From Reclinomonas americana ATCC 50394 (taxonomy: Eukaryota): a stretch of 20,000 bases of DNA. Positions 1 to 20,000 of this stretch are shown here, piece by piece (position 1 is the first letter of the stretch; every line of letters starts with the position of its first letter). The position numbers and the translations under genes are program-made. Below the pieces are notes generated by a model, which ran no database searches, was not told where the DNA came from, and saw nothing but the letters and a program-made list of their open reading frames with translations. The stretch lies in assembly GCA_048213135.1 (NCBI GenBank), contig PS015110.1, positions 101,368-121,367 of the forward strand, read 5' to 3'.

Positions 1-3000
1 ACTGCTCAGCGTCGTGGCCCCGGTCACCGCCACCGTTCCACCAAGCGTCACTGCGCCCGTGCCCGTGGTCAGCGTGTTCGTGCCCGGAATCGACACGTTA
101 CCGTTGAGCGTCGAGGCGCCGCCGACCGACAGCGAGCTGCTCAACGTGGTGGCACCGGCGGCGGTCAGAGTGCCACCGAGCGTGGTCGCCCCAGTGCCCA
201 CCGTAAACGTATTGGTGCCGGTCACCGACGTGTTGCCGTTAATGGTGGTCGCGCCCGTCACATTGGTGGTGCCGGTCAGCGACGTGGTGCCGTTGACCAC
301 AGTCAGATTGTTGCCAGCGGTGATGGTCACCGAGCCGGCAATGCTAGTGCCGCCGTTGAACGTGGCGAGACCCGTAAATGTCGAGGCGCCCGTCACGGCC
401 AGCGTGCCGCCAAGTGTTGTCGCACTGCCGACACCCGTCGTGAGGTTTCTCGTTGGCGAGAGCGTTACATCGCCGTTAAAGGTCGACGCGCCACCAAGAG
501 AGAACGGACCCGTGATGGTGGCGCCGCCGGCACTCACCGTCAGCGCGCCACCGAGCGTGGTGGTGCCCGAGTCGACCACCAGGTTGCCGGCGCCAAAGAG
601 ACGCACGTTGCTGTTGAAGGTCGCCGCGCCAGTGGTGTTTAGAGTGCCGCCGATCGAGGTGTTGCCGGCGGCGCTGAGCGTACCACCCAGCGTCGTCGCA
701 CCCGTGCCGACAGTGAACGTATTGGCGCCGGTCACCGATGTGTTGCCGTTCAAGGTGGTGGTGCCGGTGACCACAGAGTTGCCAGTCACTGTCGAGTTAC
801 CGGCCACAGACAGTGCGCCACTGACCGTGGTCAGGCCAGTGCCCGTCGTCAGCGTCGTGGCGCCCGTCAGTGTCGTGTTGCCAGAGAGCGTAGTGGCANN
901 NNNNNNNNNNNNNNNNNNNNNNNNNNNNNNNNNNNNNNNNNNNNNNNNNNNNNNNNNNNNNNNNNNNNNNNNNNNNNNNNNNNNNNNNNNNNNNNNNNNN
1001 NNNNNNNNNNNNNNNNNNNNNNNNNNNNNNNNNNNNNNNNNNNNNNNNNNNNNNNNNNNNNNNNNNNNNNNNNNNNNNNNNNNNNNNNNNNNNNNNNNNN
1101 NNNNNNNNNNNNNNNNNNNNNNNNNNNNNNNNNNNNNNNNNNNNNNNNNNNNNNNNNNNNNNNNNNNNNNNNNNNNNNNNNNNNNNNNNNNNNNNNNNNN
1201 NNNNNNNNNNNNNNNNNNNNNNNNNNNNNNNNNNNNNNNNNNNNNNNNNNNNNNNNNNNNNNNNNNNNNNNNNNNNNNNNNNNNNNNNNNNNNNNNNNNN
1301 NNNNNNNNNNNNNNNNNNNNNNNNNNNNNNNNNNNNNNNNNNNNNNNNNNNNNNNNNNNNNNNNNNNNNNNNNNNNNNNNNNNNNNNNNNNNNNNNNNNN
1401 NNNNNNNNNNNNNNNNNNNNNNNNNNNNNNNNNNNNNNNNNNNNNNNNNNNNNNNNNNNNNNNNNNNNNNNNNNNNNNNNNNNNNNNNNNNNNNNNNNNN
1501 NNNNNNNNNNNNNNNNNNNNNNNNNNNNNNNNNNNNNNNNNNNNNNNNNNNNNNNNNNNNNNNNNNNNNNNNNNNNNNNNNNNNNNNNNNNNNNNNNNNN
1601 NNNNNNNNNNNNNNNNNNNNNNNNNNNNNNNNNNNNNNNNNNNNNNNNNNNNNNNNNNNNNNNNNNNNNNNNNNNNNNNNNNNNNNNNNNNNNNNNNNNN
1701 NNNNNNNNNNNNNNNNNNNNNNNNNNNNNNNNNNNNNNNNNNNNNNNNNNNNNNNNNNNNNNNNNNNNNNNNNNNNNNNNNNNNCCACCGACACTGAGTG
1801 TGGACGAGAGGGTGGAGGCGCCGGCCACACTCAGCGTGCCGCCGAGCGTGGTCGCACCAGTGCCCACCGTCAGCGTGTTCGTGCCCGTAATGTTCACGTT
1901 GCCGTTGGTGTTGAGGGAGCCGTTCAGCGTCGTGGTGCCTGCCGCGGTCAGGTTGCCAGTCACGGTGGCGTTGCCGCCAATCGTGGCGTTGCCGCCGTTC
2001 AGCACCAAATTGCTGGTGCCCGTAAGCGTCACGTCGTTCGAGAACGTCGACACGCCACCCACCGACAGCGTACCGGCCAGCGTCGTCGTGCCCGTCACTG
2101 CAATGTTGCCGTTAAAGGTGGTGGTGGTTGGCGGCCCCATGCCCGCCAGAATCGTGAGACCGCCCGTAATCGTCACACCACTATTAAAGGTNNNNNNNNN
2201 NNNNNNNNNNNNNNNNNNNNNNNNNNNNNNNNNNNNNNNNNNNNNNNNNNNNNNNNNNNNNNNNNNNNNNNNNNNNNNNNNNNNNNNNNNNNNNNNNNNN
2301 NNNNNNNNNNNNNNNNNNNNNNNNNNNNNNNNNNNNNNNNNNNNNNNNNNNNNNNNNNNNNNNNNNNNNNNNNNNNNNNNNNNNNNNNNNNNNNNNNNNN
2401 NNNNNNNNNNNNNNNNNNNNNNNNNNNNNNNNNNNNNNNNNNNNNNNNNNNNNNNNNNNNNNNNNNNNNNNNNNNNNNNNNNNNNNNNNNNNNNNNNNNN
2501 NNNNNNNNNNNNNNNNNNNNNNNNNNNNNNNNNNNNNNNNNNNNNNNNNNNNNNNNNNNNNNNNNNNNNNNNNNNNNNNNNNNNNNNNNNNNNNNNNNNN
2601 NNNNNNNNNNNNNNNNNNNNNNNNNNNNNNNNNNNNNNNNNNNNNNNNNNNNNNNNNNNNNNNNNNNNNNNNNNNNNNNNNNNNNNNNNNNNNNNNNNNN
2701 NNNNNNNNNNNNNNNNNNNNNNNNNNNNNNNNNNNNNNNNNNNNNNNNNNNNNNNNNNNNNNNNNNNNNNNNNNNNNNNNNNNNNNNNNNNNNNNNNNNN
2801 NNNNNNNNNNNNNNNNNNNNNNNNNNNNNNNNNNNNNNNNNNNNNNNNNNNNNNNNNNNNNNAGCAGCACCAGTGGTGCTCAGCGTGCCAGTCAGCGCCG
2901 TGTTGCCTTGCACCAGCAGCGACGAGTTGAGTTGCGTGACGCCGCCCACCGTCAGGTTCGAGCTCGCATTCACCAGCGTGACTGAGCGGTAAAACAGGCC

Positions 3001-6000
3001 GTCACCCTGCGTCGTCAGTGCACCCGCCACTGTGGTGTCGCCAGCCACAGACAGCGAGCTGGAGAGCGTCGTCGCACCCGTCACCGACAGAGTATGCGCA
3101 TTGATAATGGACACGTCGCCGTCTACCGACAAGGAGTCCTTCATCGAGGTGGTGCTGTGGAATGTCGAGGCGCCCGTCACATCCAGCACACCGCCGAGTG
3201 TGGTCGTGCCCGTGTTGACCGTCAAGCTGGCCGCACCAATGAGTGACACATTGTCGTGCAACAGAGTCTTGCCGGTGACCTCCAGTCCGCCCGACATGGT
3301 GGTGTCGCCGGCGACAGAGAGCGTGGAGCCGAGTGAGGTGGTTCCAGAGACCACGGTCAAGTTGGCATTCGAGCTGACGGAAACGTCTTTCGTGAAATTG
3401 GAGAGTCCGCCCACCGACAGCGCGCCACCCAGCGAGGTGGTGCCACTGGTCACAACGAGCGGCACTCCGGCACTGAGCGTCACCTGTCCGTTGAATGTGG
3501 AAGTGCTTTGCGCCGTCAGCGCGCCCGACAGCGTCGTCGTGCCGGTGACACCGAGGGTGCCGCCCACCGACAGCACACCGCCAATGTTGACAGTGCGCGT
3601 CGGGTCGACCGTCACATTGTTCGAGAACGTCGACGTGCCGCTGACGGTCAGTGCTCCATTCGCCGCCAGCGTGCCCGCGACGGAAACAGACCCGCCAAAC
3701 GACGCTGCTCCCGTGCCGACGGCAAAGGTCTGTCCGTTGGCCACCGAGACGGCGCCACTGAAGAGCGAGCTGCCGGTCACACTCAGGCCGTTGGACAGGT
3801 TGCACGTACCGGTGACCAGCAGGTTCTTCACCGTGGTGGCTCCCATCAACACCGTCAGCGTGCCGGTGGTCACCGAAACGCTGCCGTCAAACTGCGCACT
3901 GCTGCCGACCGAGAGCGTCGACTGCATCTGTGCGGCACCGGCCACAACCAGAGGCCCACCCAGTGTCACTGTGCCGGTTCCGACAATAAGACCGTTGGAG
4001 CCAGCCACAGTCACGTCGGCGTTAAATGTCGACGGCGCACTGGCCGTCAGCGCACCGCCGAGAGTTGTGACACCCACCACTGACAGTGTGGTGGACATGA
4101 GCGCCGAACCAGTCACTGTCAGTGCGGCGCCGACCGCCATGTTGCCAGTGGTGGACGCAGCACCGGTCACCGTCAGGCCCGACGACAGACTCGTGTTGCC
4201 GGCGACAGTCAGTGTGCCACCAAACGAGGAGGTGCCAGAGACCACCGAAAAGGCGTTGTTGCTCAGCACCGTGACGGCACCACCAAACGAGGTGGCGCCA
4301 TTGGCCGACAGTGCACCCGCAAAAGTCGAGGTGCCAGTCACCGACAGCGTGCCCGTGACGGTGGCGTTGCCGCCAACCGCCAGCGCCGAAGTGCCGGTAA
4401 TGGTCACTGGCCCGCTGGCGGTGATCGCGCCAGTGGTGGCCGCGCCAGTGAGTGTCGTCGTGCCCGTCACGGCCAGCGCGCCGCCGAGTGTGGTCGGTCC
4501 CGACATGACCGTCAACGCCTTGCCCGTGTTGATGCTGACGTCGCTGTTGAAGAGCGACACTCCAGTCACCGTCAGTGTCGACTGCAGCTGCGTGGCACCA
4601 GTGACCGTCAATGCTCCGCCCAAGGTCGACGGCGTGCCGACACCCACAGAGAATGTGGTGCCCGCCGCCACGGTGGCCCCGCCATTAAAGGTGGCCATTC
4701 CGGTCGTCGCCAGCGTGCTACCCAGAGACGCCGCACCGGCCAGTGTCAGCGTGCCGTTGAGCGTGGTAGGCCCGGTGCCGACAGTAAAGGCCTTGGTGTC
4801 GGCCACAGAGACCGCCGACTGGAACAGCGACGCGCCGGCCACCGTCAGCGCACCACCCATGGTCGCCGTGCCGGACACCAGCAGGGTGCCGCCGAGCGAG
4901 GTGGCGGCCGTGGCCACGGTGAATCCGGCCGCGCCAAGAATCTGCACAGCGCCAGTCAAATTGGCGCCGGCCGTGGCCGAAAACAGTCCGGCCACCGACG
5001 CCGTGCCGGCCACCGTCAGGTTGCCTCCCAGCGTGGTGGCTCCGGTACCGACTTGCAGGTTGGCCGTGTTGGCCAACACCACATTGCTGGCAAACGAGGC
5101 CACACCTGTCACACCCACCGTTGAGGCAAACGTCGCGGCGCCCGCCACCGCCAACGACGAGCCGAGAGTTGTCGCCGAGTCGGTCACCGTCAGCGTGGCG
5201 CCCGTGGCCAGCGTCACACTACCTTGATGAAGCGTGGTAGATGCAGCGGTAAGTGCGCCACTCAGCAGCGTCGAGCCCGTCACACTCAGGGTGCCGCCGA
5301 GGCTGGTCGCCGCATCCGTGACTGTAAACTTGCGCGTCGTGCCAACGATCACGTCGCCACCCGCAAAGGTGACGGCGGCGTTCGTTGTCAGCACGCCGTT
5401 CAGCGTCGTGGTGCCGGCAACGGTGAGCGAGCCGCCAATCGCCGTCACGCCGGTGCCAACGGTGAGTGGTGTGGCGCTGTTGGCAATGGTCAAGGTGCCG
5501 GTCAGCGTTGTGTTGCCGCCGACGCTGAGCGACGAAGTGAGCGTGGTGGCGCCGGTCACCGCCAGCGTGGAGCCGAGCGATGTGGCACCGTTGACCACGG
5601 TCAGTGTGCGGCCCGTGGCCACTGTCACGTTCGTGTTCAAGGTGGCGGAGCCGCCACCCACCGACAGACCGGCAGTCAGCGTGGTGAGACCGTTCACCGT
5701 CAGCGAACCATTCATCGTCGTCGCACCGGTGCCGATGGTGACCGTCTGCGAGTCGGCCACCGAGAGGCCGGCATTCAGCGTGGCCAGTCCACCCACTGTC
5801 AGCGTTGACGTGAGCGACGTGGCACCGGTGACGCCCAGAGTGCCTCCGAGCACCGCAGGCGCGGTGGCCACCGTAAAGGTGGAGGTATTGCCGAGGATGG
5901 AGACGGTGTTGTTGAGGGTGGTGGCACCGTTGATGACGGCAGAACCAGAGAGCGTGCTCGCGCCGCCCACCGTCAGCGAACCGCCCAGGGCGGTGGCACC

Positions 6001-9000: not shown

Positions 9001-12000
9001 GCTCGCTCCCGTCACTGCCAGTGTGCCGCCGAGCGAGGTGGCCCCGCCGACCACCGTGAACGGACTCGTGCCCTGCACTGTGGTCGGGCCATTGAACTCC
9101 GCAGCCGACACGGCGTTGTTGGCAAAGATTGTGCCGGCCGAGGTGAGCGTCTGGCCCACCTGCACGGCCTGTTGGAAGTTGGCCAGGCCGCCAGTGACAG
9201 TCAGTGTCTTGGAGTTGGTGACCACAACGTCGCCGTTAAACGTCGTCGTGCCTTGCACCGACAGCGTCGACGCCAGAGCCGTCGCGCCGGTCACATTCAG
9301 CGTGCCGCCAAGAGTAGAAACTCCCGTGCCGACATTGAAGGCGTTGGCGCCGGTCACCGACAGTGTGCCGTTGACAGTGGTGGCCGCCGACACGGCCAGA
9401 GTGCCGCCGAGCACCGTGGCACCAGTGCCGACGGTGAATGTATTGGTTCCGGTGATGGAGACATTGTTGTTGAAGGTGGTGGCACCGTTGGCCGTCAGCG
9501 GACCCGTCAGAGTCGAAGCGCCCGTCACATTCAGAGCACCGCCCAGCGACGTGATGCCGTTGCCGACGGTGAGGGGGACGCCGGCGGCCAGAGTCACGGC
9601 CGAACCGAAACTGGTGGCGCCGGCCACCGCCAGCGAGCCACCCAGTGTGGTGGCGCCGGTGCCGACAGTGAACGGACTGGTGCTGGTCACCGACAGCGCG
9701 CCATTGATGGTGGCACCGCCGTTGGCGGTAAGGAGGCCAGTCAGCGTGCTCGTGCCGCCAATCGTCAGCGTGTTGGTGCCACTGACAGCCACGTTGCCAC
9801 TGAAAGTGCTGGCGCCGCTGACCGACAGCGTGCCACCAAGAGTGGTGGCACCCGTCGCGACGGCAAAGTTGGCCGGCGACGCCACCGTGACATTGTCGCT
9901 GAGTGTGGTGGTGCCGGAGACGGCGAGTGTGCCGTTGAGAATGGTGGGACCGGCCGTGCTGACACCAATGTTGCCGGAGAATACGAGATTGCCGACGACA
10001 GTGAGACTGCCATTGACGGTGGTCGACGTGGCCGGAATGATCACGGTGCCGCCATTGGTGCCGAGCGACACTTGCGTGCCCGACGCCGACAGCACACTCG
10101 AGGTGCCGACCACGGCGTCGAGCTTGGTGTTGCCCTTGATGAAGATCTCCGGGGCCACCAGCGCCATTTGCGTGCGCGTGCCACCGGATCCAACCTCGCC
10201 CAGCGTGAGCGAAATGTTGCCGAGGGCGCCGCTCGTGCGCGTAATGGTGATGACATCGGAGGCGGGGTTGATGACGACGCTGCCGGCCTGGTTGGCGGCA
10301 TTGGTGGCCGTCAGCGTAATCGACGACTTGGACGACACACTCATCACATCGGCGAGAATCGATGCCGACGCGGCATTCGCCGTGCCGTTGGCCGACACCG
10401 TGAAGGCGCCGGTGGCCAGCACATTGTGGTTGGTGACACGCGCTGTCAAGTCAATGTTACCGGCGACCATGCCGGCACCGATGTTGAAGACGGTGGTGCC
10501 GAGTTGATTGATGACAGTGAAAGTGGTGGCCGTCACCGAATGCGTGTTTTGCACCACCGCCGTGTACGACGAGCCGGCCACCGACACCGCAGTGCCATTC
10601 GGCGCCACGTACTGGCCGAGACGGAGTGTGCCGAGCTCGGAGCCGAGGGTGAGGGTGGACGGGGTGATGCTGTGCGTGGTGCCCGACATGGTCACCGTCG
10701 GTGCCACCAACGAGAAGAGCGACGACGGCGCCACATCCAACGTCGTACTCGTCATGCGTGTGTATGGACCTGTGATGCGCAAGCTCGGTGCACCCGACGT
10801 GCCTGGCGTCAAATCCGACTCCACGACCACGGTCGATCCTTGCATGGTGACCGAGGGGCCTGAAAGTGCGCCAATCGCCACTTGGGTCGTGGTCGCCGCC
10901 GCAATGCCCATGACGATGCGGTTGCCGGCCAGCGTCAGCTGTGTGGTGTTGACGCTCGAGCCGACAATGACCTTCGGGCCGATAACCTGCAGCAAGCCAG
11001 CCGTCGTCTGTCCGAGATCGACCAAGTACTGCTGTGCGGCTTGCGTGGCCGCCAACTGTGCACTCGTGTCGAGAAGCACCAGTTGCGAGGTGGCCGCCAG
11101 CACTGGATTCACGCTCAGCGTCACGCCGCCCGAGGTGGCACCCGACGACTTGATGGTCGCCTGTCGCGCCAGCAACGAAAACGTGTCGATCTCAGTGGCC
11201 GTCGGCGTCTGCACCGACACGGTGCCAGTGGCCTGCAGCGCCAGCGAGTACGACTTGAGGGTGATGCTGTTGGTGTTGATCGACGGCACCGTCTGCACCG
11301 TAATGGTGCTCGTGGCCGGTTCGCCCACCACGCTTCCATCGCCGCCGATAAGCATGGTGGCGGCCTTGGTGCTCCACGCACCCGTCACCAGCGCCTGCAG
11401 CGACACGCCACGCGTCGTAATGGTGGTCAACGTCTGACCGAGGGTCAGCGAACCCGACGGACGCAGCAGCAGGTTGGTGGGCGTAAAGTCGTACGACGGT
11501 CCCACAAACGAGGCCGTGCCACTGGCCAGCGTCATGGTGAAGGGACCGGTGTTGAGCGCAAACGATGTCGCCGTCGTCATGGTCAGCGTCGGCAACGTAA
11601 TCGTGTTGTTCAGCGCCACATCCGAGGCCGACAGCGCAAATTGCTTGCTGGCCACCGTCACCACCGCGTTCGCCGCATTGCCGAGGTTGACGGCCGTCGG
11701 CAGCGCCGCACCGGAACTGCCGAGATTGATGGTCGACGCGGCCGCGGCAGTGAACACACCGCCGGCAACCGTCGCGTCCATGGTAATCAGAGGCGCCTTG
11801 GCCGTCAGCATCTTGGTGGCGGCGCGCGTGTCCAGATCCAGTGACACCACTTGCGTCTCGTCAAACAGCTGCATGCGCTGCGTGGTCATGGAGAAGGTGG
11901 CCGGCGTCGCCGCTGCACCCTGCTTGACAACCACCGACGAGGTGCCGGTCTCGTTGAACGACGTCAACGCCATGGCCTCGGCGTTGAGCGTAAAGGAGCG

Positions 12001-13315
12001 CGACTGTGCGCCACCCGAAGTGCCCGTCAGCAAGTGCGCATTGGCCGCGTACGTGGTCATGTTGAAGGTGGTGGCGGTGATGGTGTTGGACACGTTTGCC
12101 GCCGCCGTCGTGAGCGCGATCGATGTGGTGGTGGCCGTCGTACCAATCGTCACCGTTGGGGCGGTGANNNNNNNNNNNNNNNNNNNNCCAGGTGGTGCCG
12201 GAGAGGGTGGCCGTCGGGGCGGTGAGCGTCAGCGAGGTGCCAATGTTCATCGTCACGGTGTTGGAGGCGAGAGTGAACACGGGGAGCGTGAACAAGTTGG
12301 TGCCGACGGCCGACCACGCGGTGATGGTAAATGTGCCGGCGTCGGCGGTCAACGAGGTGAGCAGGTTGTTGCCGAGGACAATGCTGGTGGTGAGCGAGGC
12401 CGTGTTGCCGGCATTCTTGTTCTTGCCAATCTCCACCGCCAAGCCATCCAGGGTGACGCCGTTCGTGCCATTGGCGCGAATACGAGAGCACTCGACGCGC
12501 GCCGGGAACGTGGGATCATTGTCCAGCGTCATGGCGCACAGAGACGAGGTGCCGCGCGACATGACCACCGTGCTCGGTGTGCCGGCCGTCACCACCAGTC
12601 CCGACACATTGGCGCCAGAGCCAACTTGCATCGAGGCTGCGACGGTGGCCAGCGCCGTGTATGTGCCGGCATTCAGCGCCACGGTCGTCACCGGCGAAGC
12701 ATTCGTGCCGATGCGCAGCTGCGTCGTGGCCAACAAGTCAATGTTCGCCGCCGTCGTGGTCACCAGGGTCGAAGATGTCAGCGCAATGTTCGTGTTGACA
12801 ATGGCGCCAGCGGAGCCAATCGTCACCGTCGGAGACGCCAGTGTCACTGAGGTGCCATAGGTGGCCGACAGCGTGGCGGCCGCCAGAGTCATGCTCGGCG
12901 TTGCCGAAGTGCCAATGCTGGTCGCACCCGACGGAGTCACCACAAACGTGGAGACGGTGGCAGAAAAGGCGGGTGAACCGCTGACAGTGAGCGACGTGCT
13001 GGTGGCCAGGTTGAGCACCGGCGTCGTCACCGTCGACTGTGTGGTGGCCGCCACAAGGAACCGATTGACCGAATAGTTAATGTCGGAGCTCGCTGTCACG
13101 TTGATGTTGGCGGCGCGCTCTGTCAGCGTGGAGAGTGCAGCACTACCAATCGACACTTGCACGCCGGTGGTGGCGCCAAGAGTGAGCGAGCCCGCCGCAC
13201 CCGTATCGACCAGCACTGAAGCAAGCGCCGTCAGCGTCGCCGCATTGTTGAGGCTCAGGGAGCCGAGGTCCAGCTGACCGCCGATCGAGCCGCCAAAGCC
13301 GGCACCGGCGCGGAT
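1..13315 (-). CDS. Exon 16: giant exon (IRAGAGFGG... to window edge ...[14 protein letters not shown]), interrupted only by assembly gaps
   Basis: Acceptor TGCAG at 13316 (phase 0). Sequenced segments 12188-13315, 2863-12167, 1785-2191 and 1-898 each read in the same protein style. Frame changes occur only across N gaps, so introns hidden in the gaps cannot be excluded. Confidence 0.85.
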
Positions 13316-16058
13316 CTGCACGAAAGGGAAAAAGGGGGGTGGTTGAGAGGGTCATCACCAATGGGGGTAAAGAAAGAAACGTGGCGCGCGCTACGCACCG
13401 CCAGTGGAGCACCGATACCGACGGCGGTGCGGTCGGGGCGCTGAATGGTGAGCGCGTTTGGCGAGGCGGCGGCACCGAGATTCGACTGCAGCAGCAGCAC
13501 GGAGCCGGTGACGTTGATGGCCGACGCCGAGGGAATGCTGATGCTGCCGTTGAACTGGGCGCAGGGGTGGGGGAGCGCGATGAGAATCATCACTCAAAGA
13601 GGAAGCGACATTGGTGGGCACAAAACTGTCGAGGAGGCCGAGTACACCACAAAGGAACCGGCGGCCGTGCCGAGTTCCACCGTGGCAGCCGACGAGACAC
13701 CGAGCTGCAGATTGCCCGACGACGTGGCGCCAGAGCCGGCATCGAGTGCACTGCATTGTTATCGAAAAGTGAGGGGAAGAAGGGGAGGTCATCAGGCCTC
13801 AAGAGACACGCAACAGGTTGCCACCCGTAGCGCCAGCAGTGTTCTGACCGCGAATAAAGGTGCTCGAGGCAGCCACAGCGCCGGTCTGCGGATCGCGTTG
13901 CAAGATGAATGATTTGTTGGTGGCTCCAGCTCCGTCGCGACCGAGCCACACGATGGATGAGGCGGCGCCGACGCTGATGCCTGGGGTGGGAAGGGAGAAG
14001 GCAAGGGAGAAGGGGGGAAGGGGGAAGGGTGAGGAGAGAGGGAAGGACGAGGAAAAGGAGGAGGGAAGGACGGGGAGAAAGAGGTGGAAAGGACAAGGAG
14101 TGAGGGGAGAGAGTGAGGACAGAGTGACGACGAGGACGAGGAGGAGGAGAGAAGGATAAGGAGGAGAACAGTGCGATAAACTCTCTTCAAAATCAACATT
14201 CAATGGGACAACACTTGTGGTTTCAGGAACGTCACAATGAGTGCGAGAGCACCAAATGACACGGAGCAACAATACCAGAGAGCGAGAGTGTGTGTGAGAG
14301 AGAGTCAGAGAGATAGGCAAACAGGCACATGCACACACACGCATGCACACATATACGCACACACACACACATGCACGCACACGCGCGCACACACACGCAC
14401 ACAGACAGACGCACATGCACACGCACATGCACGCACGCACATACACACACGCACACACACACACTACACGCACACTACATGTCTTCGACCTGCAGCTGCC
14501 ACCAACAAACAACAAGCACAATAGCTCTTCCCTCAACAAAGTGTCCCCTCACAACAAACCTGGTTCGAGACGCATGTACGTCTGTGCCTGCAACTCCAGC
14601 TGCGTCGCCGACGACAGCAGCGCCAGAGTGAGGCCGCCGGCCAACGTAGTCGTGCCGTCGACTTGCAGGCTGGAGAAGAATCGCGAGCCTTGCAAGACGT
14701 TGAGCACGCCGTTGACGGTCGTGGTGACACCAGCAACGGCAATGGAGACCGAAGTGGCCGTCGGACCCATGGTGAGTGACTGAGTAGTGCGGCGACAATC
14801 AGCAAATGACAACCAGGGTCAATACGCGAAATTGAAAACTCAACTGCACTACGCGGATCGAGAGTCATGGCTCCATTGCTCTGCAGCAGAGCGGTCGAGG
14901 CCGACGACACCAACGAGAGTGCACCGGCCGCCGTGACGGAGAATGTACTCTCGGCGGTCATGGCTGACGCGCCGGCGTCAATGGCAAACTGTGAGCCGAC
15001 ACGAGGTGAGTTTGCATGATTTGCTTTGCATGACAGGGAAATCCTGTCGAGATTCACGAACCGCGCCACGAGAACCGGCGGTTCCGGTGGACAGCGTGAG
15101 CGAACCACACGTGGAGACACCCATGCCATTGGTGTGCACGGCGGAGATAATGCGCAGGGCAGGCGGTGCGAGACCGTCAAAGACAGACGCGTGCTGGATC
15201 GTGGTGTCCGTGCCCTGTCGACCCACGCGCAGAATATTATCGGTGGAGCGAATGGGACTCGAGCTGCCGTTCAGATTGACAGCGCCAGTGGCTGTGATGG
15301 ACGAGCTGGTGATGGTCACGGCAACGGCATTCGTACCGCTGCCAATGGACACTGAACTCGTGTTGGCATCACCAATCATGACCGCGCCGTTGGCGGCAGC
15401 CACATTGCCAGCACCCGCACGCAGCAGCCTGACATTGTTCATCAGGAAAAAGAATGCAGAGTAACAGTAAAGGGGGGAAGAAAGGGCCACGCAACAAGTT
15501 GCCGCCTGCGCCGGCAGTCGACTGCTGTCCGGCGACACTGAACGGTAGCGACGCTGCCGCAGTGGTCGGTGCAATCGAGTAGCTGGAGGCCGGCGTGCCG
15601 CCAAGGACCACCGCACCAGAGAACGGAGTCAGCGTCAACGAGCCGGCACTGGTGCGCAGAACCGGCGAGAAGATTTGGGTGGTGAAGGTGGCGTCTTGTG
15701 CCACCGACAACTGCAAAGGTGGGCAAAAGGGAGAGAGGGGTGAGGTCGACATGAATGCAGACACGCACGCGTCACCTTCAGCCACGCAACTGTGCCCTGT
15801 ACAGTAGTTGGTACACCCGCTTGTGAAATTGTGACACCGGCCGAGCTAGACGATGACGCTCCGGTGGCGATGTTGACAATGGTGGCGGTCGTGTCAACAC
15901 GATTGCCATCGAGGGTGAGAGTGGTGCCCGACACGGTCACCGTACTGGTGCCGCGCGCCAAGGCGCCAATCATGATTGAGCTGGTCAGACCGGCTCCGGT
16001 GCTGATGCGCAGATTGATGGCTGGCGAACTGCAAAGCAGTGAGTGAGGAGAGGTAAGG

Positions 16059-16119
<61 letters not shown>

Positions 16120-19100
16120 CGACGACGACGACGACGACGACGTACGTACGTACGTACGTACGTACGTAACGAACGAACGTACGTAACGTAACGTACGGTA
16201 CGGTACGTACGTCGTACGACGACGACGACGTACGTACGTCGGTCGACCGGACCGACGANNNNNNNNNNNNNNNNNNNNGAGTAGACGAGACGAGAGTACG
16301 GTAGAGAGAGAGAGAGGACGAGAGTAGAGAGAGAGAGAGAAAGAAAGACAGACGACAGAGAGATGTAGCACGAGCGCGAGAGAGAGAGAGAGAGTTGACG
16401 CAACGTGACAGCCATGTCAGCCGTTGTAATCACAAACGGCGTCAAATTGGACGGAGTGCCTTGCAGCACCAGTGTGCTGGCCGCCGAAGCCAATGGACCT
16501 GTCAGCGTCAGCATGCTGGAGAACAGAGCGTTGCCAGCAACCTGTTGCACGATAGACGGTGAGCGAGGACAGTACATGCACGGACTAAAACGTGTGAATC
16601 GAACCGTCAGAGTTGACTGCGCCGTCAGCGAGCCGACGACGGTGGTGGCCAGTGGTTGAAGAAGCAGCGATGTAGACGTCAAGCGGCCAATTGTCACCTG
16701 AGCAAGCACCACTAGCATCAGTGACACTCGTTCATATTCAGTGCAGGGTGGAAGATGTGGTGACGCACCGTTGATGCCGCAATGGTGCCCACGTTGACAT
16801 TGCCTTGCGTCAGCGCACCAGTGCCGGCATCGAGGAAGCTGCAGGAAGCATGGCGTGAGATAACGAAAAGCACATAGCTTGCACAACAATATCGCACGCA
16901 ACATATCACCACCCGCCGAGCCGACAGCAGTCGATGATTGGGCATACACCGACAGAGCCTGACCGCTGGCGGTGGTGCTGGGCGTACGCGTGATCTCCAT
17001 GGTGGCTTGCGCGCCCGTGAGCGAGATCTGTCACGCCGATCGATGAGAAGACATGACATCATGACTCACCAACTCACTCGCACACGCAAACATACGGCGA
17101 AACAGTCACTGATTCGCATACTTGCGATAACTGCTTGAGCACACGCACACAGACTCTAATCTCCATTTTGGCTTCCTTCTCTCTCGCCTCCCTCTCGTCA
17201 CACCATCCGCCCCTCGCCCTCCTCCCACTATCTGCCGTCCCTCGCTTTCATCCCACAATCATCCCTTCATCCCTTCTTGTCCGCTCTCTTCCCTCTTTTC
17301 GCCCTCACCCCGCCCTCTTCCACTCCCCTCGCTTTCACTCCCTCACACACTCTGCCCCTTCCCCTCCCCCACACTCACCCTGCCATTGGCGGGGCGCAAG
17401 TCGAGTGCATTGCTACTCGAGACCACAATTGGCGTCGTCAGCTGCGTGGCGGCCACAATGCTATTGGCCGTCAGTGTGGTGCCGTTCAGTGTCACATCCT
17501 GCGTCACCACCAGCTGGCCGAGAACGCGCGTGACGAGACCGGCGCCACTCAGACGCACTTCACCCGTGGCGGCGTTGATCACCACGTTCGAGGTGGCCGA
17601 GGTGATGCTCATGGCTCCACTCGCGTCGGCGGTCATGGAGAGCGCCCGCAACACAATCGAATTGGTGCGATACGCGGCCGCTCCCAAGTACAAGTTACCG
17701 TCGGCAGTGGCCGGCAGCGTGGACTTGCCGGCCTCGATCGACAAATCGCCACCAATGCCCGGCACATCCACACGCTTGATGGTGAACGGGCTGCCGATAG
17801 TCGTGTCGCCAATGTCAAAGACATTGGTCGTCACCAGCAGACGGCCGTTGCCGGCCGACGGCGCCAGCGTGAGTGAACCATTCATCGTGGTGGCGCCGGT
17901 TACCGCCAGTGTGCCGGCCGACAAGGCGCTGTTGACAATGACAGAGGCCGAGGCGATGGTGGTGGTCTGGCCAGCCAAACCGGAGAGACCAATGCTAATG
18001 TTGCCGCGCTGCGTGCCAATCTTGACGTTGCCGCTGGTGGTGGAGCCGAGGCCGCCGTCAATGACCACATCGCCGCCAGAGCCGGTGGTGGTCGGCTGAC
18101 CAATGATGTTGGTCTGCGCACCGACGCCGACCGCCAGCGTCGGCCGGGTCAACGTGAAAGCCGACGCGGTGGAGCCGAGAAGCACACGTTGCGAGGCAGG
18201 CTGCAGCGTGAGGTCATCCGTCACCAGCGACGTGGTGATCAACGTCGTCTGCAAGCCGCCCACGGCACGTGTCTGTCCCGTGACTTGCAGCACGCCGTTC
18301 GGAACGGCGGCGAGACCAGCACTCAGCTCCAGGTAGGAGACGCCAGCGGAGCGGAAGACAACGCGGGAGGTGGCGGCTGTGTGGAGACAAGTGAGATGTA
18401 GAGAAGGAAAAAGAGATACAACCACACTGTAACTCCACCGCCTACGCAACAGTCGCGGAACATGCCGGTGGTGCCATCGCCAGAGAACGAGAAGCCGACA
18501 TTGTCGGTCAGCGTCAATCCAGCGAATGCTTGGACGGCGCCAAACACCTCCAAGCGAGGACCCGGCGAGGCCCATGTGGTGCCTACCTGCACCAGACTCT
18601 GTCCGGGCGAGCCAGTCTTGCGCACCGTCAGATCACCACCGCTGCCAATCAGCACGCCGCCGGCAAAGGCGTCGGCCGAGTTGATGCGCAGTGTACTGGT
18701 CATGCCCGACACGGAGCGATCCAATGTCAGCAGCGGCGTGGTGGCACCAAGCAGGAACTGGTCGCCGTCAATGCCCAGACTCGTGGTGATAATGACCGGG
18801 TTCGTCGACAATGTCGGTGCGTAGATACGACGCACACCGCCAATCCAGATGCCGACGCCAGTGGATGGGAGGGCTGCGTGGGGGGACGGTCGTGAACAAA
18901 GGGTGCATGCGCTTCGGAAGAGAGACGAATCATCGGCACACACACACGCAACACGAAGCACTCGAAAACGACGGAAGAAAGAAGGAAAGAGCGGGGGTGG
19001 AGAAGGAGAAGCACGCGTGCGTGTACAAAGCGATAGACTGGGAATGTCACAAACCAGGTGACGAAAGACGGAGAGAGAGAGAGAGAGAGAGAGAGAAACA

Positions 19101-19807
19101 CGAAACCCACAAGAACGCAATCAACAAGAGCTGTAATCACCATCGCACACACCATCTCTCTCCCTAGTCAGTGCACTCACCATCAGCAAACAAGCCAGTC
19201 ACCGAGTCCGTGTCAAACGCAAATCCCAAATCAATGGTGGCCGCGCTGGAGGGTGGCGTGCCACGTGCGGCACGGACCGAGCCCAGCGAGCGCAGCGATC
19301 CAGAGCCTGTCGCGTACGACGAGGCACCGGAGCCAAACACGGCACGCGCGGCATTGGCCAGATTGCCTCCGCGGCCAATGTAGGCGTCGTTGCTGCCAAT
19401 CACCACACCGTCGACAAAGCTGCCGCCCGAGTTCACCAGCAACAGGCTCTGCAGAGAGACGCCGGAACGCTCCAGCGCCACACCCGTGCCGACCGAGACT
19501 TGCGTGCCACCCGACACCAGCGAACCGAATGTGGTAATGAGGCCAGTCGGCGACACGCGCAGGCGCTCCGACACGGCACCGCCTTGCGACAAGAAGAGCT
19601 TCAGGTCGGCGGTCACACCCGGCGACAGCTCACCCGTGTGGATGAACGAGACGAGCGGAGCGCCGGCCACCGGAGTGCCCAGACGGAACGTGTCGCCGCG
19701 AATGTCCAGGCGTCCGTACACCGACAGTGGGTTGTTGGTGGTGCCGTCGTCGGGGATCTCGAAGCGCAGGGCACCGTTGCTGTACATCGAGACGGTGTTG
19801 CCGGTGG
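1..19807 (-). CDS. Partial giant multi-exon gene (16 exons seen, no start or stop in window) encoding a T/G/V/A/S-rich repetitive beta-helical fibre/adhesin-like protein, about 5,800 aa in the window. Model: complement(join(<1..13315,13399..13554,13627..13750,13815..13980,14560..14779,14845..14988,15062..15428,15496..15710,15791..16028,16405..16541,16605..16697,16769..16838,16903..17027,17379..18376,18451..18873,19181..19807))
   Basis: Minus-strand ORF pieces of the same amino-acid style are separated by GT...CAG segments with pyrimidine tracts and CTCAC/CTGAT/CTCAT branch-like motifs. Donor and acceptor phases match at all 15 junctions when traced by hand. Function is inferred from composition and motifs only. 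Confidence 0.88.
899..1784. other. Assembly gap (886 N)
   Basis: N run. Confidence 0.99.
2192..2862. other. Assembly gap (671 N)
   Basis: N run. Confidence 0.99.
12168..12187. other. Assembly gap (20 N, probably a placeholder size)
   Basis: N run; the reading frame differs on the two sides. Confidence 0.97.
13399..13554 (-). CDS. Exon 15 ([11 protein letters not shown]...GIGAPLA)
   Basis: Acceptor CCCAG at 13555; donor G|GTGCGT at 13398; phase 0/0. Confidence 0.87.
13627..13750 (-). CDS. Exon 14 ([41 protein letters not shown]); not represented in the ORF track
   Basis: Acceptor TGCAG at 13751 (phase 2); hand translation continues the GGNLALDAGSG motif; donor A|GTTTTGT at 13626 (phase 0) is the least certain boundary. 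Confidence 0.75.
13815..13980 (-). CDS. Exon 13 ([14 protein letters not shown]...GATGGNL)
   Basis: Acceptor CCCAG at 13981 after a long pyrimidine tract (phase 1); donor T|GTTGCGT at 13814 (phase 2). Confidence 0.87.
13981..14559 (-). other. 579-bp intron with a degenerate (CA/TG)n microsatellite (about 14326-14478) and a pyrimidine tract of about 190 bp (13985-14170)
   Basis: GTTTGT...CCCAG boundaries; low-complexity content. Confidence 0.85.
14560..14779 (-). CDS. Exon 12 ([10 protein letters not shown]...YMRLEP)
   Basis: Acceptor CTCAG at 14780 (phase 0); donor CAG|GTTTGT at 14559 (phase 1). Confidence 0.85.
14845..14988 (-). CDS. Exon 11 ([10 protein letters not shown]...MTLDPRSA)
   Basis: Acceptor CACAG at 14989; donor A|GTTGAGT at 14844 is the nearby phase-0 GT (the adjacent GTAGTG and GTGCAG are phase 1). 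Confidence 0.8.
15062..15428 (-). CDS. Exon 10 ([14 protein letters not shown]...TAGSRGA)
   Basis: Acceptor GTCAG at 15429 (phase 2); donor G|GTTCGT at 15061 (phase 0). Confidence 0.82.
15496..15710 (-). CDS. Exon 9 (LSVAQDATF...AGAGGNL)
   Basis: Acceptor TGCAG at 15711 (phase 0); donor T|GTTGCGT at 15495 (phase 2). Confidence 0.85.
15791..16028 (-). CDS. Exon 8 ([11 protein letters not shown]...PTTVQGT)
   Basis: Acceptor TGCAG at 16029 (phase 2); donor A|GTTGCGT at 15790 (phase 0). Confidence 0.82.
16061..16115. repeat. Perfect (GA)n microsatellite, about 27 units, inside intron 16029-16404
   Basis: Directly visible. Confidence 0.97.
16259..16278. other. Assembly gap (20 N, probably a placeholder size) within an intron
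   Basis: N run between degraded (GA)n tracts. Confidence 0.97.
16405..16541 (-). CDS. Exon 7 (VAGNALFSS...TTADMAVT)
   Basis: Acceptor AACAG at 16542 (phase 0); donor C|GTTGCGT at 16404 (phase 2), followed directly by (CT)n. Confidence 0.85.
16605..16697 (-). CDS. Exon 6 ([10 protein letters not shown]...AQSTLT)
   Basis: Acceptor CTCAG at 16698; donor G|GTTCGA at 16604; phase 0/0. Confidence 0.8.
16769..16838 (-). CDS. Exon 5 ([23 protein letters not shown])
   Basis: Acceptor TGCAG at 16839 (phase 2); donor G|GTGCGT at 16768 (phase 0). Confidence 0.85.
16903..17027 (-). CDS. Exon 4 ([14 protein letters not shown]...SAGGDI)
   Basis: Acceptor GACAG at 17028 (phase 0); donor T|GTTGCGT at 16902 (phase 2), which rebuilds the motif GGDIFLDAG. 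Confidence 0.85.
17160..17372. repeat. C/T-rich low-complexity tract (purine-rich on the transcript strand) in the 5' part of intron 17028-17378
   Basis: Directly visible. Confidence 0.85.
17379..18376 (-). CDS. Exon 3 ([12 protein letters not shown]...DLRPANGR)
   Basis: Acceptor CACAG at 18377 (phase 1); donor G|GTGAGT at 17378 (phase 0); frame of ORF 17343..18575. Confidence 0.9.
18451..18873 (-). CDS. Exon 2 ([13 protein letters not shown]...[14 protein letters not shown])
   Basis: Acceptor CGCAG at 18874 (phase 1); donor T|GTTGCGT at 18450 (phase 1). Other phase-1 donors at 18438 (GTGGAG) and 18465 (GCATGT) cannot be excluded. Confidence 0.8.
19071..19096. repeat. (GA)n microsatellite inside intron 18874-19180
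   Basis: Directly visible. Confidence 0.95.
19181..19807 (-). CDS. Exon 1 in window ([18 protein letters not shown]...[15 protein letters not shown])
   Basis: Acceptor TTGCAG at 19808 after a long pyrimidine tract; donor G|GTGAGT at 19180; phase 1/1; frame of ORF 19164..19787. Confidence 0.9.
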
Positions 19808-20000
19808 CTGCAAGGAGGGAAAGGAGGGGGTGAGTGAGAGGGAGGGAGGGAAGGGGGAGGGAGGGAGGAGGGAATCAAGAAAGAGAGAAAGAAGCGAATG
19901 AGAAGGAAGGGAAAGAGACGGAAGAGAGAGAAGAAAGGGATCGAAGGAGGAGGGAGGGAACGAGAGCAAGGGAGCGAAAGAACAAGAGAGAGACATGAGA
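19808..20000 (-). other. 3' part of a spliceosomal intron (polypyrimidine tract, CTCAC branch-like motif, TTGCAG acceptor)
   Basis: The plus strand is almost pure G/A and the segment abuts exon 1 at ctgca. Confidence 0.85.

Follow-up and report, generated by a model that had tools for sequence, protein, structure and literature searches.

The window analysed here is the whole stretch of 20,000 nucleotides from the protist Reclinomonas americana, and it raises the question of what kind of gene could place thousands of residues of fibre-like repeat in line with a series of short introns: one resident gene, two abutting genes, or the fibre gene of a virus. The whole window is the interior of one gene, open at both ends. 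The gene lies on the minus strand, a detail missing from an earlier sequence-only reading of the same DNA. The layout of the model comprises 16 exons and 15 introns (19807-12188), a large exon (12165-2863), and two further pieces (2191-1787 and 897-1). Exon borders were taken from an ab initio, codon-based gene model built by dynamic programming, in which GTTGCG and GTGAG-type donors received an equal bonus; an amino-acid-scored gene model was discarded, having taken CT-rich intron sequence as exon. The features, in the order of transcription, are as follows.

19808..20000, minus strand: 3' end of an upstream intron, with a CT-rich tract and an acceptor ending TTGCAG; the gene runs past the window
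19181..19807, minus strand: exon 1, 208 complete codons, donor GTGAGT
18451..18873, minus strand: exon 2, donor GTTGCG; its last 32 residues match the metagenome frame P0066
17379..18376, minus strand: exon 3, 332 codons, with two module copies (18239-17931 and 17852-17616)
16903..17027, minus strand: exon 4, first half of a module, ending ..SAGGD at a phase-2 intron with a GTTGCG donor
16769..16838, minus strand: exon 5, second half of the module begun in exon 4
16605..16697, minus strand: exon 6, from the gene model
16405..16541, minus strand: exon 7; the next intron holds a 20-N gap (16259-16278) and GA, GAC and ACGT microsatellites
15791..16028, minus strand: exon 8, from the gene model
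15496..15710, minus strand: exon 9, first half of a module, ending ..GAGGN at a phase-2 intron with a GTTGCG donor
15062..15428, minus strand: exon 10, second half of the module begun in exon 9
14845..14988, minus strand: exon 11, from the gene model
14572..14779, minus strand: exon 12, donor GTCTCG, the weakest of the model
13815..13980, minus strand: exon 13, first half of a module, ending ..GATGGN at a phase-2 intron with a GTTGCG donor
13627..13750, minus strand: exon 14, second half of the module begun in exon 13
13399..13554, minus strand: exon 15, from the gene model
12188..13315, minus strand: exon 16, 376 codons, non-periodic and T/A/S-rich, reaching the 20-N gap
12168..12187, no strand: assembly gap of 20 N between exon 16 and the large exon, with coding-like sequence on each flank
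10021..12165, minus strand: first 715 codons of the large exon, T/A/S-rich with no clear repeat period
2863..10020, minus strand: shaft of 12-residue repeats, 2,386 codons, TLxVTGATTLxG arranged as 12+12(+12)+9 with periods of 45 and 33
2192..2862, no strand: N run in the shaft, 671 bases
1787..2191, minus strand: shaft piece between N runs, 135 codons
899..1784, no strand: N run in the shaft, 886 bases
1..897, minus strand: shaft piece, 299 codons, open at the first base of the window

The N-terminal part (7.6 kb) is cut by 15 short introns, and the coding sequence beyond it has none for at least 10.6 kb; the 20-N gap at 12168-12187 is the exact boundary of the two. The spliced upstream model has 1,739 residues and zero internal stops, while the stop-free, intron-free frame from 12165 to 2863 on the minus strand runs for 3,101 codons. 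Base composition predicts stops at 2.45% of codons, so that ln P of no stop is -76.9 for a run of 3,101 codons, and 200 shuffles reached at most 422 codons without a stop. GC at third codon positions stands at 0.756 for the upstream exons and 0.79 for the large exon, against an overall GC of 0.53 for the modelled introns. The gene extends upstream of the window, as exon 1 opens in codon phase 1 and is preceded by a CT-rich tract with a CAG acceptor at 19808; at the other end the frame is still open at base 1, which places the C-terminus beyond it. The residues resolved are 5,274 in number (1,739 + 3,101 + 135 + 299) and the N gaps add about 526 residue-equivalents, with in-frame joins assumed across the four N runs that the frame traverses (899-1784, 2192-2862, 12168-12187, and 16259-16278). 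A plus-strand frame at 5231-10507 (1,758 codons) was rejected as a gene, its product being 21.5% Val and 16.5% Pro; it stays free of stops since TTA, CTA, and TCA are scarce as sense codons, with 0, 2, and 12 occurrences.

No Pfam family reached its cut-off in the seven window pieces scanned. Bactofilin (PF04519; 16.4 against 27.9 bits, E 0.011), Fil_haemagg (PF05594; 12.7 against 21.5 bits, E 0.21), and DUF5649 (PF18886; 15.4 against 25 bits) fell below theirs, and Peptidase_S74 (PF13884) was absent from these seven pieces, the C-terminus of the gene lying outside the window. Rfam and tRNA scans gave no match. The sequence-only reading had described one spliced frame open at both window ends, of about 5,800 amino acids, dominated by T, G, V, A, S, L, and N with few charged, Trp, or Cys residues, and with no eukaryotic domain that it recognised. 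The frame was borne out by an ab initio model with no internal stop, the size is matched by the resolved residues and gaps together, and the Pfam scan agrees; in the large exon, T+G+A+L+V+S+N make up 86.7% of residues and D+E+K+R 3.3%, with one Trp and one Cys.

Whether such a gene belongs to the nucleus of the protist can be judged from its introns, 10 of 15 of which are 63-83 bases long. The intron after exon 12 has 591 bases and contains a CA-type microsatellite. GTTGCG is the donor of six of the 15 introns, each after an exon without a terminal G. On the minus strand of 20000-12188 this hexamer occurs eight times, six of them as model donors, and the rest of that strand (12.2 kb) has none. 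A further intron starting from the GTTGCG at 17652 was rejected, the sequence downstream being GC3-rich and coding, without a pyrimidine tract or suitable acceptor. A phase-2 intron interrupts three copies of the N-terminal module at one shared position, directly after GG[DN]. In two of these intron-carrying copies the module profile breaks off at position 57, precisely where the exon ends (exon 4, match 17030-16902; exon 9, match 15650-15495); the profile search gave no match for the copy in exon 13. One metagenome frame, P0066, covers both the end of exon 2 (last 32 residues against P0066 residues 1-32, 53% identity, E 8e-9) and the start of exon 3 (residues 3-103 against P0066 residues 46-144, 45% identity, E 5e-20). 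The GTTGCG donor, unusual but typical of this genome, and the three same-position introns in duplicated modules indicate a long-resident nuclear gene rather than contamination, as the earlier reading had argued from its count of 15 or more spliceosomal introns; the model gives 15 within the window. By the ab initio gene model, the locus is a real resident nuclear gene of a GC-rich, intron-dense protist.

The last two-thirds of the intron-free part consists of a 12-residue repeat with the consensus TLxVTGATTLxG and a 9-residue insert after each two or three units. Autocorrelation peaks fall at lags of 45, 12, and 33, and 142 units span 1,704 of the 2,386 shaft residues, the spacing between units being 12 in 77 and 21 in 29 of 141 cases. 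One unit position is Gly in 90% of the 142 units; counted from this Gly, A accounts for 48% and T for 16% of units at position 2, and L for 57% and F for 28% at position 5. Nucleotide-level tandem repeats, as a sign of recent expansion, were not found.

When three copies of 270 residues of the shaft (5617-6426) were predicted together, ipSAE was 0.89 in each of three runs, against a best of three of 0.00 for the controls. The partner pLDDT was 95-96, the runs shared at least 92% of contacts, and the model has about 1,930 contacts, joining residue i of one chain to residue i-6 of another. In calibration, the mark of the tool was reached by 21 of 30 true homo-pairs and by 0 of 23 single chains; that calibration used two copies where the trimer job used three, and the tool carries the warning that a pass can stem from solved structures of like fold in its training. 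The shaft is predicted to form an intertwined homotrimeric triple beta-helix. This prediction, and the recurrence of the repeat on viral contigs and in bacterial genomes, are in line with the style of a trimeric fibre that the sequence-only reading had seen. Among the checks proposed with that reading, the comparison of monomer with trimer came out far more confident for the trimer (pLDDT 95-96 against 77.1, although the programs differ), and Foldseek of the shaft monomer against the PDB returned nothing at E <= 0.001.

The shaft could also be read as a single-chain, three-sided beta-solenoid, that is, a monomeric rod of the kind known from TPS or autotransporter adhesins, ice-binding proteins, or bactofilins. 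The AlphaFold2 monomer of the shaft is indeed a plausible, ordinary three-sided beta-solenoid with a 3-residue strand every 6 residues (best pLDDT 77.1, pTM 0.66). In structural alignment it superposes on the EtpA adhesin (Z 22.2, rmsd 2.3 Å, 267 residues aligned), pertactin (Z 19.2), and a beta-helical antifreeze protein (Z 18.1). The sub-threshold Pfam matches to Bactofilin and Fil_haemagg point the same way, and the ESM Atlas gave weak leads only (recognition values 1050 and 1745), among them leads to bactofilin and haemagglutinin repeats. However, four of the five monomer models (pLDDT 47-77 overall) lie at 47-69, the Foldseek search was empty, and the trimer model is much more confident, on what is a rough comparison between two different programs. 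No sequence relation to the single-chain beta-helix adhesins (EtpA, pertactin, Ag43) was found, the shaft profile having no match below E 0.03 among PDB sequences, and no TPS or autotransporter domain was detected by Pfam in the window, with both termini of the gene outside it. Proteins sharing the 12-residue unit end in the trimer-specific S74 chaperone, and the solved 12-residue-repeat fibril TLP-12 is a trimer, according to the available part of its description (bioRxiv 10.1101/2025.09.30.679562). A monomeric rod is unlikely, and the homotrimeric shaft is preferred.

Relatives of the shaft occur in giant proteins, on viral contigs, and in bacteria, at 28-42% identity within low-complexity repeat, a resemblance that may reflect either convergence or shared ancestry. 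Among giant proteins, 39 are related at E <= 1e-3 (best 3.4e-70), and 4 of the 15 scanned have a Peptidase_S74 end. P0002, with 31% identity to the shaft over 1,560 columns of low-complexity repeat and the 12-residue unit in common, carries Peptidase_S74 at residues 3153-3212 of 3254; P0011 is another S74-ended protein with the 12-residue unit. Thirteen loci were found on viral contigs in IMG/VR, including a giant-virus MAG (best 40% identity, E 1e-29), and the GC content of the viral relatives is 35-45%. Two of these loci hold frames of more than 2,250 codons, open at both ends, and 12-residue periodicity is present in L001, L002, and L004. For the two of five viral records that were examined, G001 and G002, S74 matches lie in frames other than those of the shaft matches, as read from coordinates. 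Nine bacterial loci have the 12-residue repeat, and one of these, L024 from a Bdellovibrionota MAG, is a lipoprotein-like frame of 511 residues in which four TLxVTGATTLxS units precede a head domain and then Peptidase_S74. PHROGs yielded two matches, a tail-fibre family (2.3e-6) and a family without assigned function (1.4e-11). With its low-complexity filter on, tblastn of a shaft fragment matched none of 50,697 phage records.

The N-terminal third is made up of a lineage-restricted module of about 100 residues with the core A[FY]T[LI]xRP..G.G..T.I.GQ....G.GGD[LV].[IL]DAG.G....G.V.IG. Its only relatives among 1.84 billion representative proteins are nine short, eukaryote-like metagenome fragments with weak matches. 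No homologues of exon 1 were found among proteins of 365-2,000 residues, nor did proteins of 1,261-3,600 residues include any relative of the 720 residues that open the large exon; a scan of metagenome contigs with exon 3 gave 422 pattern matches, of which 0 were confirmed. Against PDB sequences the best E for exon 3 was 0.39 or worse and the module profile had no match. PHROGs had none for six N-terminal or non-repeat pieces of the window, nor for the related metagenome fragment P0070. The AlphaFold2 model of exon 3 from 10 sequences (pLDDT 53.5) was unusable. Fourier analysis of the hydrophobic pattern failed to raise the known repeat region above the 99th percentile of shuffles, so its result says nothing on the non-repeat parts.

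Since the 20-N gap lies exactly at the switch in gene structure, the model might have joined two genes, an intron-rich host gene (19807-12188) and an intron-free shaft gene (12165-1) abutting at the gap. The switch is abrupt: 5.2 kb of coding sequence with 15 introns give way to 9.3 kb with none, where 26.7 would be expected at the upstream density (Poisson P(0) = 2.4e-12). The module profile matches 0 of 65 shaft-type proteins or cluster members (P0001-P0065) and 0 of 24 viral or bacterial loci, and exon 16 shows no significant likeness to the 720 residues just beyond the gap (best E 0.078). Yet both flanks are on the same strand and coding-like up to the Ns, lacking a stop ahead of the gap and any untranslated-looking sequence beyond it. 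Exon 16 is itself intron-free for 1.1 kb and T/A/S-rich, like the 715 residues that follow; the short motif [TV]APT[AV]T[LMI][SG].. is present on both sides, and third-position GC is alike (0.756 and 0.79). These continuities make a misjoin very unlikely, and the single gene with module array and shaft remains the preferred reading.

That the shaft is instead the fibre gene of an integrated polinton-like or giant virus, not a working host gene, is more doubtful still: the relatives on IMG/VR viral contigs, including a giant-virus MAG, the 9.3-kb exon without introns, and the S74-ended fibres of up to 3.9 thousand residues that integrated polinton-like viruses are reported to encode (PMC12220804) would suit such an origin, but the frame is intact through 3,101 codons, composition and third-position GC fit the intron-bearing exons where GC in the viral relatives is 35-45%, tandem repeats at the nucleotide level that would suggest recent expansion are absent, viral neighbour genes are not seen, the gene filling the whole window, and the upstream part has 15 host-type introns. 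On balance, the locus is probably best explained as a resident nuclear gene encoding a giant and most likely homotrimeric fibre protein, with a module array and a shaft of 12-residue repeats.

Fibres of several kinds bear comparison with this one. Phage and viral fibres and tailspikes of the K1F endosialidase type have a triple-beta-helix stalk and a C-terminal, self-cleaving Peptidase_S74 intramolecular chaperone. The fibres of polinton-like viruses integrated in protist genomes are likewise described, in the part of the source available, as modular and ending in a C-terminal S74 (PMC12220804). The present shaft resembles S74-ended viral fibres in its predicted trimeric triple beta-helix, in the 12-residue unit that also occurs in P0002, P0011, and viral contigs, and in the PHROG tail-fibre match (2.3e-6). 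The gene differs from them in being spliced and nuclear with host-type codon bias, and in N-terminal modules that are absent from the viral and bacterial relatives compared. Through L024, there is also a likeness to the mosaic adhesive trimer (MAT) fibres of Bdellovibrio, as far as the available text describes them (PMC10769870); we infer that L024, a cellular, non-viral fibre with such a shaft, belongs with this family, although it is about 10 times shorter than the present gene, bacterial, lipoprotein-like, and without introns. Among eukaryotes, MYRF/MrfA combines a phage-type triple-beta-helix stalk with an S74/ICA domain, but in the consulted parts of the sources the stalk is short and belongs to a membrane-bound transcription factor, not a giant repeat fibre (PMC3742443, PMC8326128, PMC3828593); no sequence relation to the present gene was found in the searches here.

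The closest described system is the TLP-12 glycofibril, and giant eukaryotic triple-beta-helix proteins with a 12-residue repeat have had precedent since 2025. In the available part of that report, TLP-12 is a cryo-EM trimer of glycosylated 12-residue repeats, each with two 3-residue strands, with the motif GSxxSx7, glycans on S2 and S5, and a measured rise of 0.65 Å per residue (bioRxiv 10.1101/2025.09.30.679562). The candidate genes given there encode giant proteins with a C-terminal ICA domain, include Amoebophrya, and are from alveolates only. Both systems have a 12-residue repeat with a near-invariant Gly (90% here) and two 3-residue strands per repeat in a triangular triple beta-helix of three chains, which in the present gene is predicted only; both consist of giant, Ser/Thr-rich eukaryotic proteins. 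In contrast to TLP-12, GSxxSx7 is absent and TLxVTGATTLxG takes its place, each group of two or three units is followed by an insert of 9 residues, the N-terminal part is a large non-repeat array of modules rich in introns, and the protist lies outside the alveolates.

If the model is right, each 12-residue unit would contribute two 3-residue strands, and three chains would intertwine with a 6-residue stagger into a triple-beta-helix rod. By analogy with the rise of TLP-12 (0.65 Å per residue), the shaft residues within the window, between 2,820 and about 3,340 in number, would extend for some 0.18-0.22 micrometres. Folding would probably be nucleated from a putative C-terminal Peptidase_S74 chaperone beyond the window, and the module array may represent the proximal or anchoring end. 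The outward Thr/Ser-rich positions would probably be O-glycosylated, and the protein would probably form a fibril at the cell surface or outside the cell.

A wider proposal can be offered tentatively: that a non-alveolate protist builds sub-micrometre, probably glycan-coated extracellular fibrils from a small nuclear gene family in which a viral-type shaft of 12-residue repeats, anciently captured, was fused to intron-carrying modules invented in the lineage, and that it is an unrecognised source of the environmental "glycofibrils" of natural waters. The N-terminal module is an unexplored fold and may be the anchoring or assembly end. Should the model hold, a free-living eukaryote encodes a fibre about 10 times longer than typical phage fibres, and a shaft unit common to viral, bacterial, and predator-bacterium fibres sits in a host-style spliced gene. 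The locus would then also be a dated example of viral structural modules turning cellular, on the basis of the introns duplicated with the N-terminal modules and the intron-free 9.3-kb repeat exon in an intron-dense gene. For the newly described environmental glycofibrils it provides a candidate gene with a new repeat motif.

The gene lies on the minus strand of a window with 59-67% G+C (lower only where N runs dilute it), and its largest part is a single frame without a stop between a 20-N gap and the N run ending at 2862. Base composition predicts stops at 2.45% of codons, so that ln P(no stop) over this 3,101-codon frame is -76.9, and the longest run without a stop in 200 shuffles was 422 codons. 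Third-position GC in the large exon is 0.79; T, G, A, L, V, S, and N make up 86.7% of its residues and D, E, K, and R only 3.3%, with a single Trp and a single Cys. The parts of the locus are as follows.

19807-12188, minus strand: upstream part, modelled as 16 exons and 15 introns
14325-14475, 16061-16394, 19071-19096, and 19813-19981: microsatellites in the four long introns (CA/CACG-type, GA, GAC, ACGT, GA-rich)
16259-16278: N run (20 N), flanked by one of the intron microsatellites
12168-12187: N run (20 N)
12165-2863, minus strand: large exon
2192-2862: N run
2191-1787, minus strand: downstream piece of 135 codons, same sequence type as the large exon
899-1784: N run
897-1, minus strand: downstream piece of 299 codons, same sequence type, frame open at base 1

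Of the product, 5,274 residues are resolved and the gaps account for the equivalent of about 526 more, in agreement with the size of about 5,800 amino acids proposed in the sequence-only reading. That reading's single continuous spliced frame, open at both window ends, also holds, given the 3,101-codon run, a first exon that begins mid-gene, and the open base 1, with the upstream exons modelled. A plus-strand frame at 5231-10507 (1,758 codons; product 21.5% Val and 16.5% Pro) was rejected as an antisense artefact: it is open only because of codon bias on the sense strand, where the large-exon codons complementary to stops are rare (TTA 0, CTA 2, and TCA 12 occurrences). Such a frame is a potential trap for gene callers.

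The large exon turns into a repetitive shaft at about its residue 716, beyond which the identity autocorrelation is highest at lags 45, 12, and 33. An iterated profile found 142 units of 12 residues covering 1,704 of 2,386 residues, spaced exactly 12 apart in 77 of 141 cases and 21 apart in 29. The consensus is T-L-x-V-T-G-A-T-T-L-x-G, with Gly conserved in 90% of units, Leu in 63%, Val in 62%, and Leu/Phe in 85%, and with Ser/Thr in 76-78% at two Thr positions. Units stand in groups of two or three followed by a 9-residue insert of the [ND]-V-x-[VIL] type, which accounts for the 33- and 45-residue periods. Tandem Repeats Finder detected no nucleotide-level repeat in the large exon; the shaft copies are therefore old.

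The shaft is probably a trimer, judging from structure prediction, and the main structural rival is a monomeric solenoid. Single-chain AlphaFold2 prediction of 270 shaft residues, run on an alignment of ten paralogous stretches in register, gave one 3-residue strand per 6 residues (pLDDT 77.1, pTM 0.66; the other four models 47-69). Foldseek found no match to this model at E <= 0.001; full structural alignment grouped it with single-chain three-sided beta-helices, the closest being EtpA (Z 22.2, rmsd 2.3 A, 267 aligned) and pertactin (Z 19.2), and these matches favor the solenoid. Folded together, three copies of the same stretch reached ipSAE 0.89 in every one of three runs, whereas none of three controls scored above 0.00. 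In the tool's calibration, which used two copies rather than three, 21 of 30 true homo-pairs passed its mark and none of 23 single chains did; the pass may reflect memory of similar folds. Sequence searches of the PDB returned no related sequence. Partner pLDDT was 95-96, contact agreement between runs was at least 92% over about 1,930 contacts, and the closest contacts pair residue i with residue i-6 of another chain; this predicted pattern is that of an interwoven triple beta-helix. The comparison of AlphaFold monomer and trimer suggested in the sequence-only reading, rough because the two programs differ, thus favors the trimer, with the chain modelled alone still forming a solenoid.

The shaft has many relatives. 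A word-indexed search with the whole exon found 39 proteins at E <= 1e-3 (2,550 scored), of 1,705-5,427 residues, of which the best covers 52% of the query at 28% identity (E 3.4e-70). A haptophyte, Diacronema lutheri, contributes one of them (E 1.8e-5), and the window's own product is absent from the 39. In a Pfam scan of 15 of them (the top 14 except P0007, plus P0032), four ended in Peptidase_S74 (P0002, P0010, P0011, and P0016), and precomputed annotation places PF13884 in five of the 39. In P0002, [11 protein letters not shown] units occur in runs. Shaft relatives are present at 13 IMG/VR loci, the best at 40% identity and E 1e-29, and one is on a giant-virus MAG. Two of the viral loci, L001 and L002, have frames of more than 2,250 codons, open at both ends within the 6.7-7.2 kb fetched and consisting largely of 12-residue units. 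Their contigs are AT-rich, viral, and 32 and 45 kb long, so one fibre gene occupies a large share of each. The 12-residue periodicity is found in L001, L002, and a third viral locus, L004, in DNA of 35-45% G+C. Bacterial genomes contributed nine loci (Bacteroidota, Gammaproteobacteria, Burkholderiales, and Bdellovibrionota). One, in a Bdellovibrionota MAG (L024, 1680-3215), encodes 511 residues that begin like a lipoprotein and continue through four TLxVTGATTLxS units and a head region to Peptidase_S74. This is, in miniature, the layout proposed for the giant gene. A shaft fragment matched two PHROGs families, a tail-fibre family (2.3e-6) and another with no assigned function (1.4e-11). From this spread, the 12-residue shaft is a unit that trimeric fibres of viruses and cells use widely, and Pfam has no model for it. 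The fibre style recognized from sequence finds support in this shared unit and in the predicted interwoven trimer. Likeness at 28-42% identity in a low-complexity repeat is compatible with either shared ancestry or convergence and cannot separate the two.

The upstream part differs in gene structure. Exons were chained by codon log-odds, with GT..AG required, phase kept continuous from exon to exon, and simple bonuses for donors and acceptors, and the ab initio codon-based model was retrained three times; exon borders remain a model. The spliced product has 1,739 residues and no stops, third-position GC is 0.756 in modelled exons, overall GC is 0.53 in introns, and introns of 63-83 bases make up 10 of the 15. 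Exon 1 starts in phase 1, preceded by a CT-rich tract with a CAG acceptor at 19808; the gene therefore extends upstream past the window. The donor GTTGCG is used by 6 of the 15 introns, each time after an exon without a final G, a count that is not independent evidence because its bonus equalled that of GTGAG-type donors. On the minus strand, six of eight GTTGCG occurrences in the 7.8-kb upstream stretch are model donors, and the other 12.2 kb have none. One independent check on the splicing comes from sequence similarity to the metagenome protein P0066, whose first 32 residues align to the end of exon 2 (53% identity, E 8e-9) and residues 46-144 to the start of exon 3 (45%, E 5e-20). Exons 1 and 2 both terminate in G-F-x-F-x-x-D-x-x-T-G-[LM]-F (19181-19230 and 18451-18500), a motif also present in P0066; it may resemble sequences close to the N-termini of certain phage fibre proteins.

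Exhaustive HMMER searches with exon 3 against 1.84 billion representative proteins found only nine proteins at E <= 1e-3 and none at E <= 1e-10; all nine are of 76-454 residues from short metagenome contigs. In two, P0067 and P0069, similarity fades into Cys/His-rich tails at the expected intron site, and the relatives therefore look eukaryotic. Their alignment defines a module of about 100 residues, A[FY]T[LI]xRP..G.G..T.I.GQ....G.GGD[LV].[IL]DAG.G....G.V.IG, with six copies, counted by eye, in the spliced model. Three have a modelled phase-2 intron with donor GTTGCG immediately after GG[DN] (16902/16903, 15495/15496, and 13814/13815). The module profile matched four places in the window, and two of the matches end exactly where their exon does (16902/16903 and 15495/15496), both at profile position 57. 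The identical site indicates that the intron was copied together with the module, and the array expanded within an intron-bearing genome. This duplication, with the modelled introns, supports the earlier interpretation of a resident nuclear gene. Neither the 65 shaft-type proteins and cluster members (P0001-P0065) nor six-frame translations of 24 viral and bacterial loci (partial loci) gave a match to the profile. Searches of Pfam, PHROGs, PDB, and Atlas with the N-terminal part returned nothing, and the AlphaFold2 model of exon 3 was unusable (pLDDT 53.5).

The 5.2 kb of upstream coding sequence has 15 modelled introns and the next 9.3 kb has none, against 26.7 expected at the upstream density (Poisson P(0) = 2.4e-12). 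This asymmetry may have arisen because the repeat grew out of a unit that lacked introns, because a gene lacking introns was captured, or because two genes were wrongly joined at 12168-12187. A mis-join is suggested by the coincidence of the switch with the 20-N gap, but is improbable: the flanks are coding-like as far as the Ns and show neither a stop nor anything resembling untranslated sequence, exon 16 is already intron-free for 1.1 kb and T/A/S-rich, like the 715 residues beyond the gap, third-position GC is similar on either side, and a short APT.T..G motif occurs on both (similarity not significant, E 0.078).

The closest known system is TLP-12, a glycofibril from pond water solved at 3.0 A; the 2025 preprint describes a trimer of 12-residue repeats, each with two 3-residue strands, in a triangular triple beta-helix with O-glycans on Ser 2 and Ser 5 and a rise of 14 nm per 216 residues per chain (bioRxiv 10.1101/2025.09.30.679562). 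Its candidate genes include ones from Amoebophrya whose products run to about 20,000 residues and end in an ICA (S74) domain, among about 150 candidates reported from alveolates only. The present shaft shares the period of 12, the conserved Gly, the strand layout, and the trimer (predicted here, a cryo structure for TLP-12), but lacks the GSxxSx7 motif. At the rise given for TLP-12, its 2,820 resolved residues, or about 3,340 if both large gaps are counted, would form a rod of roughly 0.18-0.22 micrometres. The literature found on spliced nuclear trimeric-fibre genes in protists comprised only TLP-12 and reports of modular S74-ended fibres of up to 3.9 thousand residues from polinton-like viruses in protist genomes (PMC12220804), the short stalk of triple-beta-helix kind in MYRF, and the cellular S74 MAT fibres of Bdellovibrio (PMC10769870). 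The kind of gene is therefore already known, and the present gene differs as a variant, distinctive in its 12-residue motif with regular 9-residue inserts, in a near-orphan N-terminal module array that grew together with its intron, and in the striking contrast of its intron-free and intron-rich halves.
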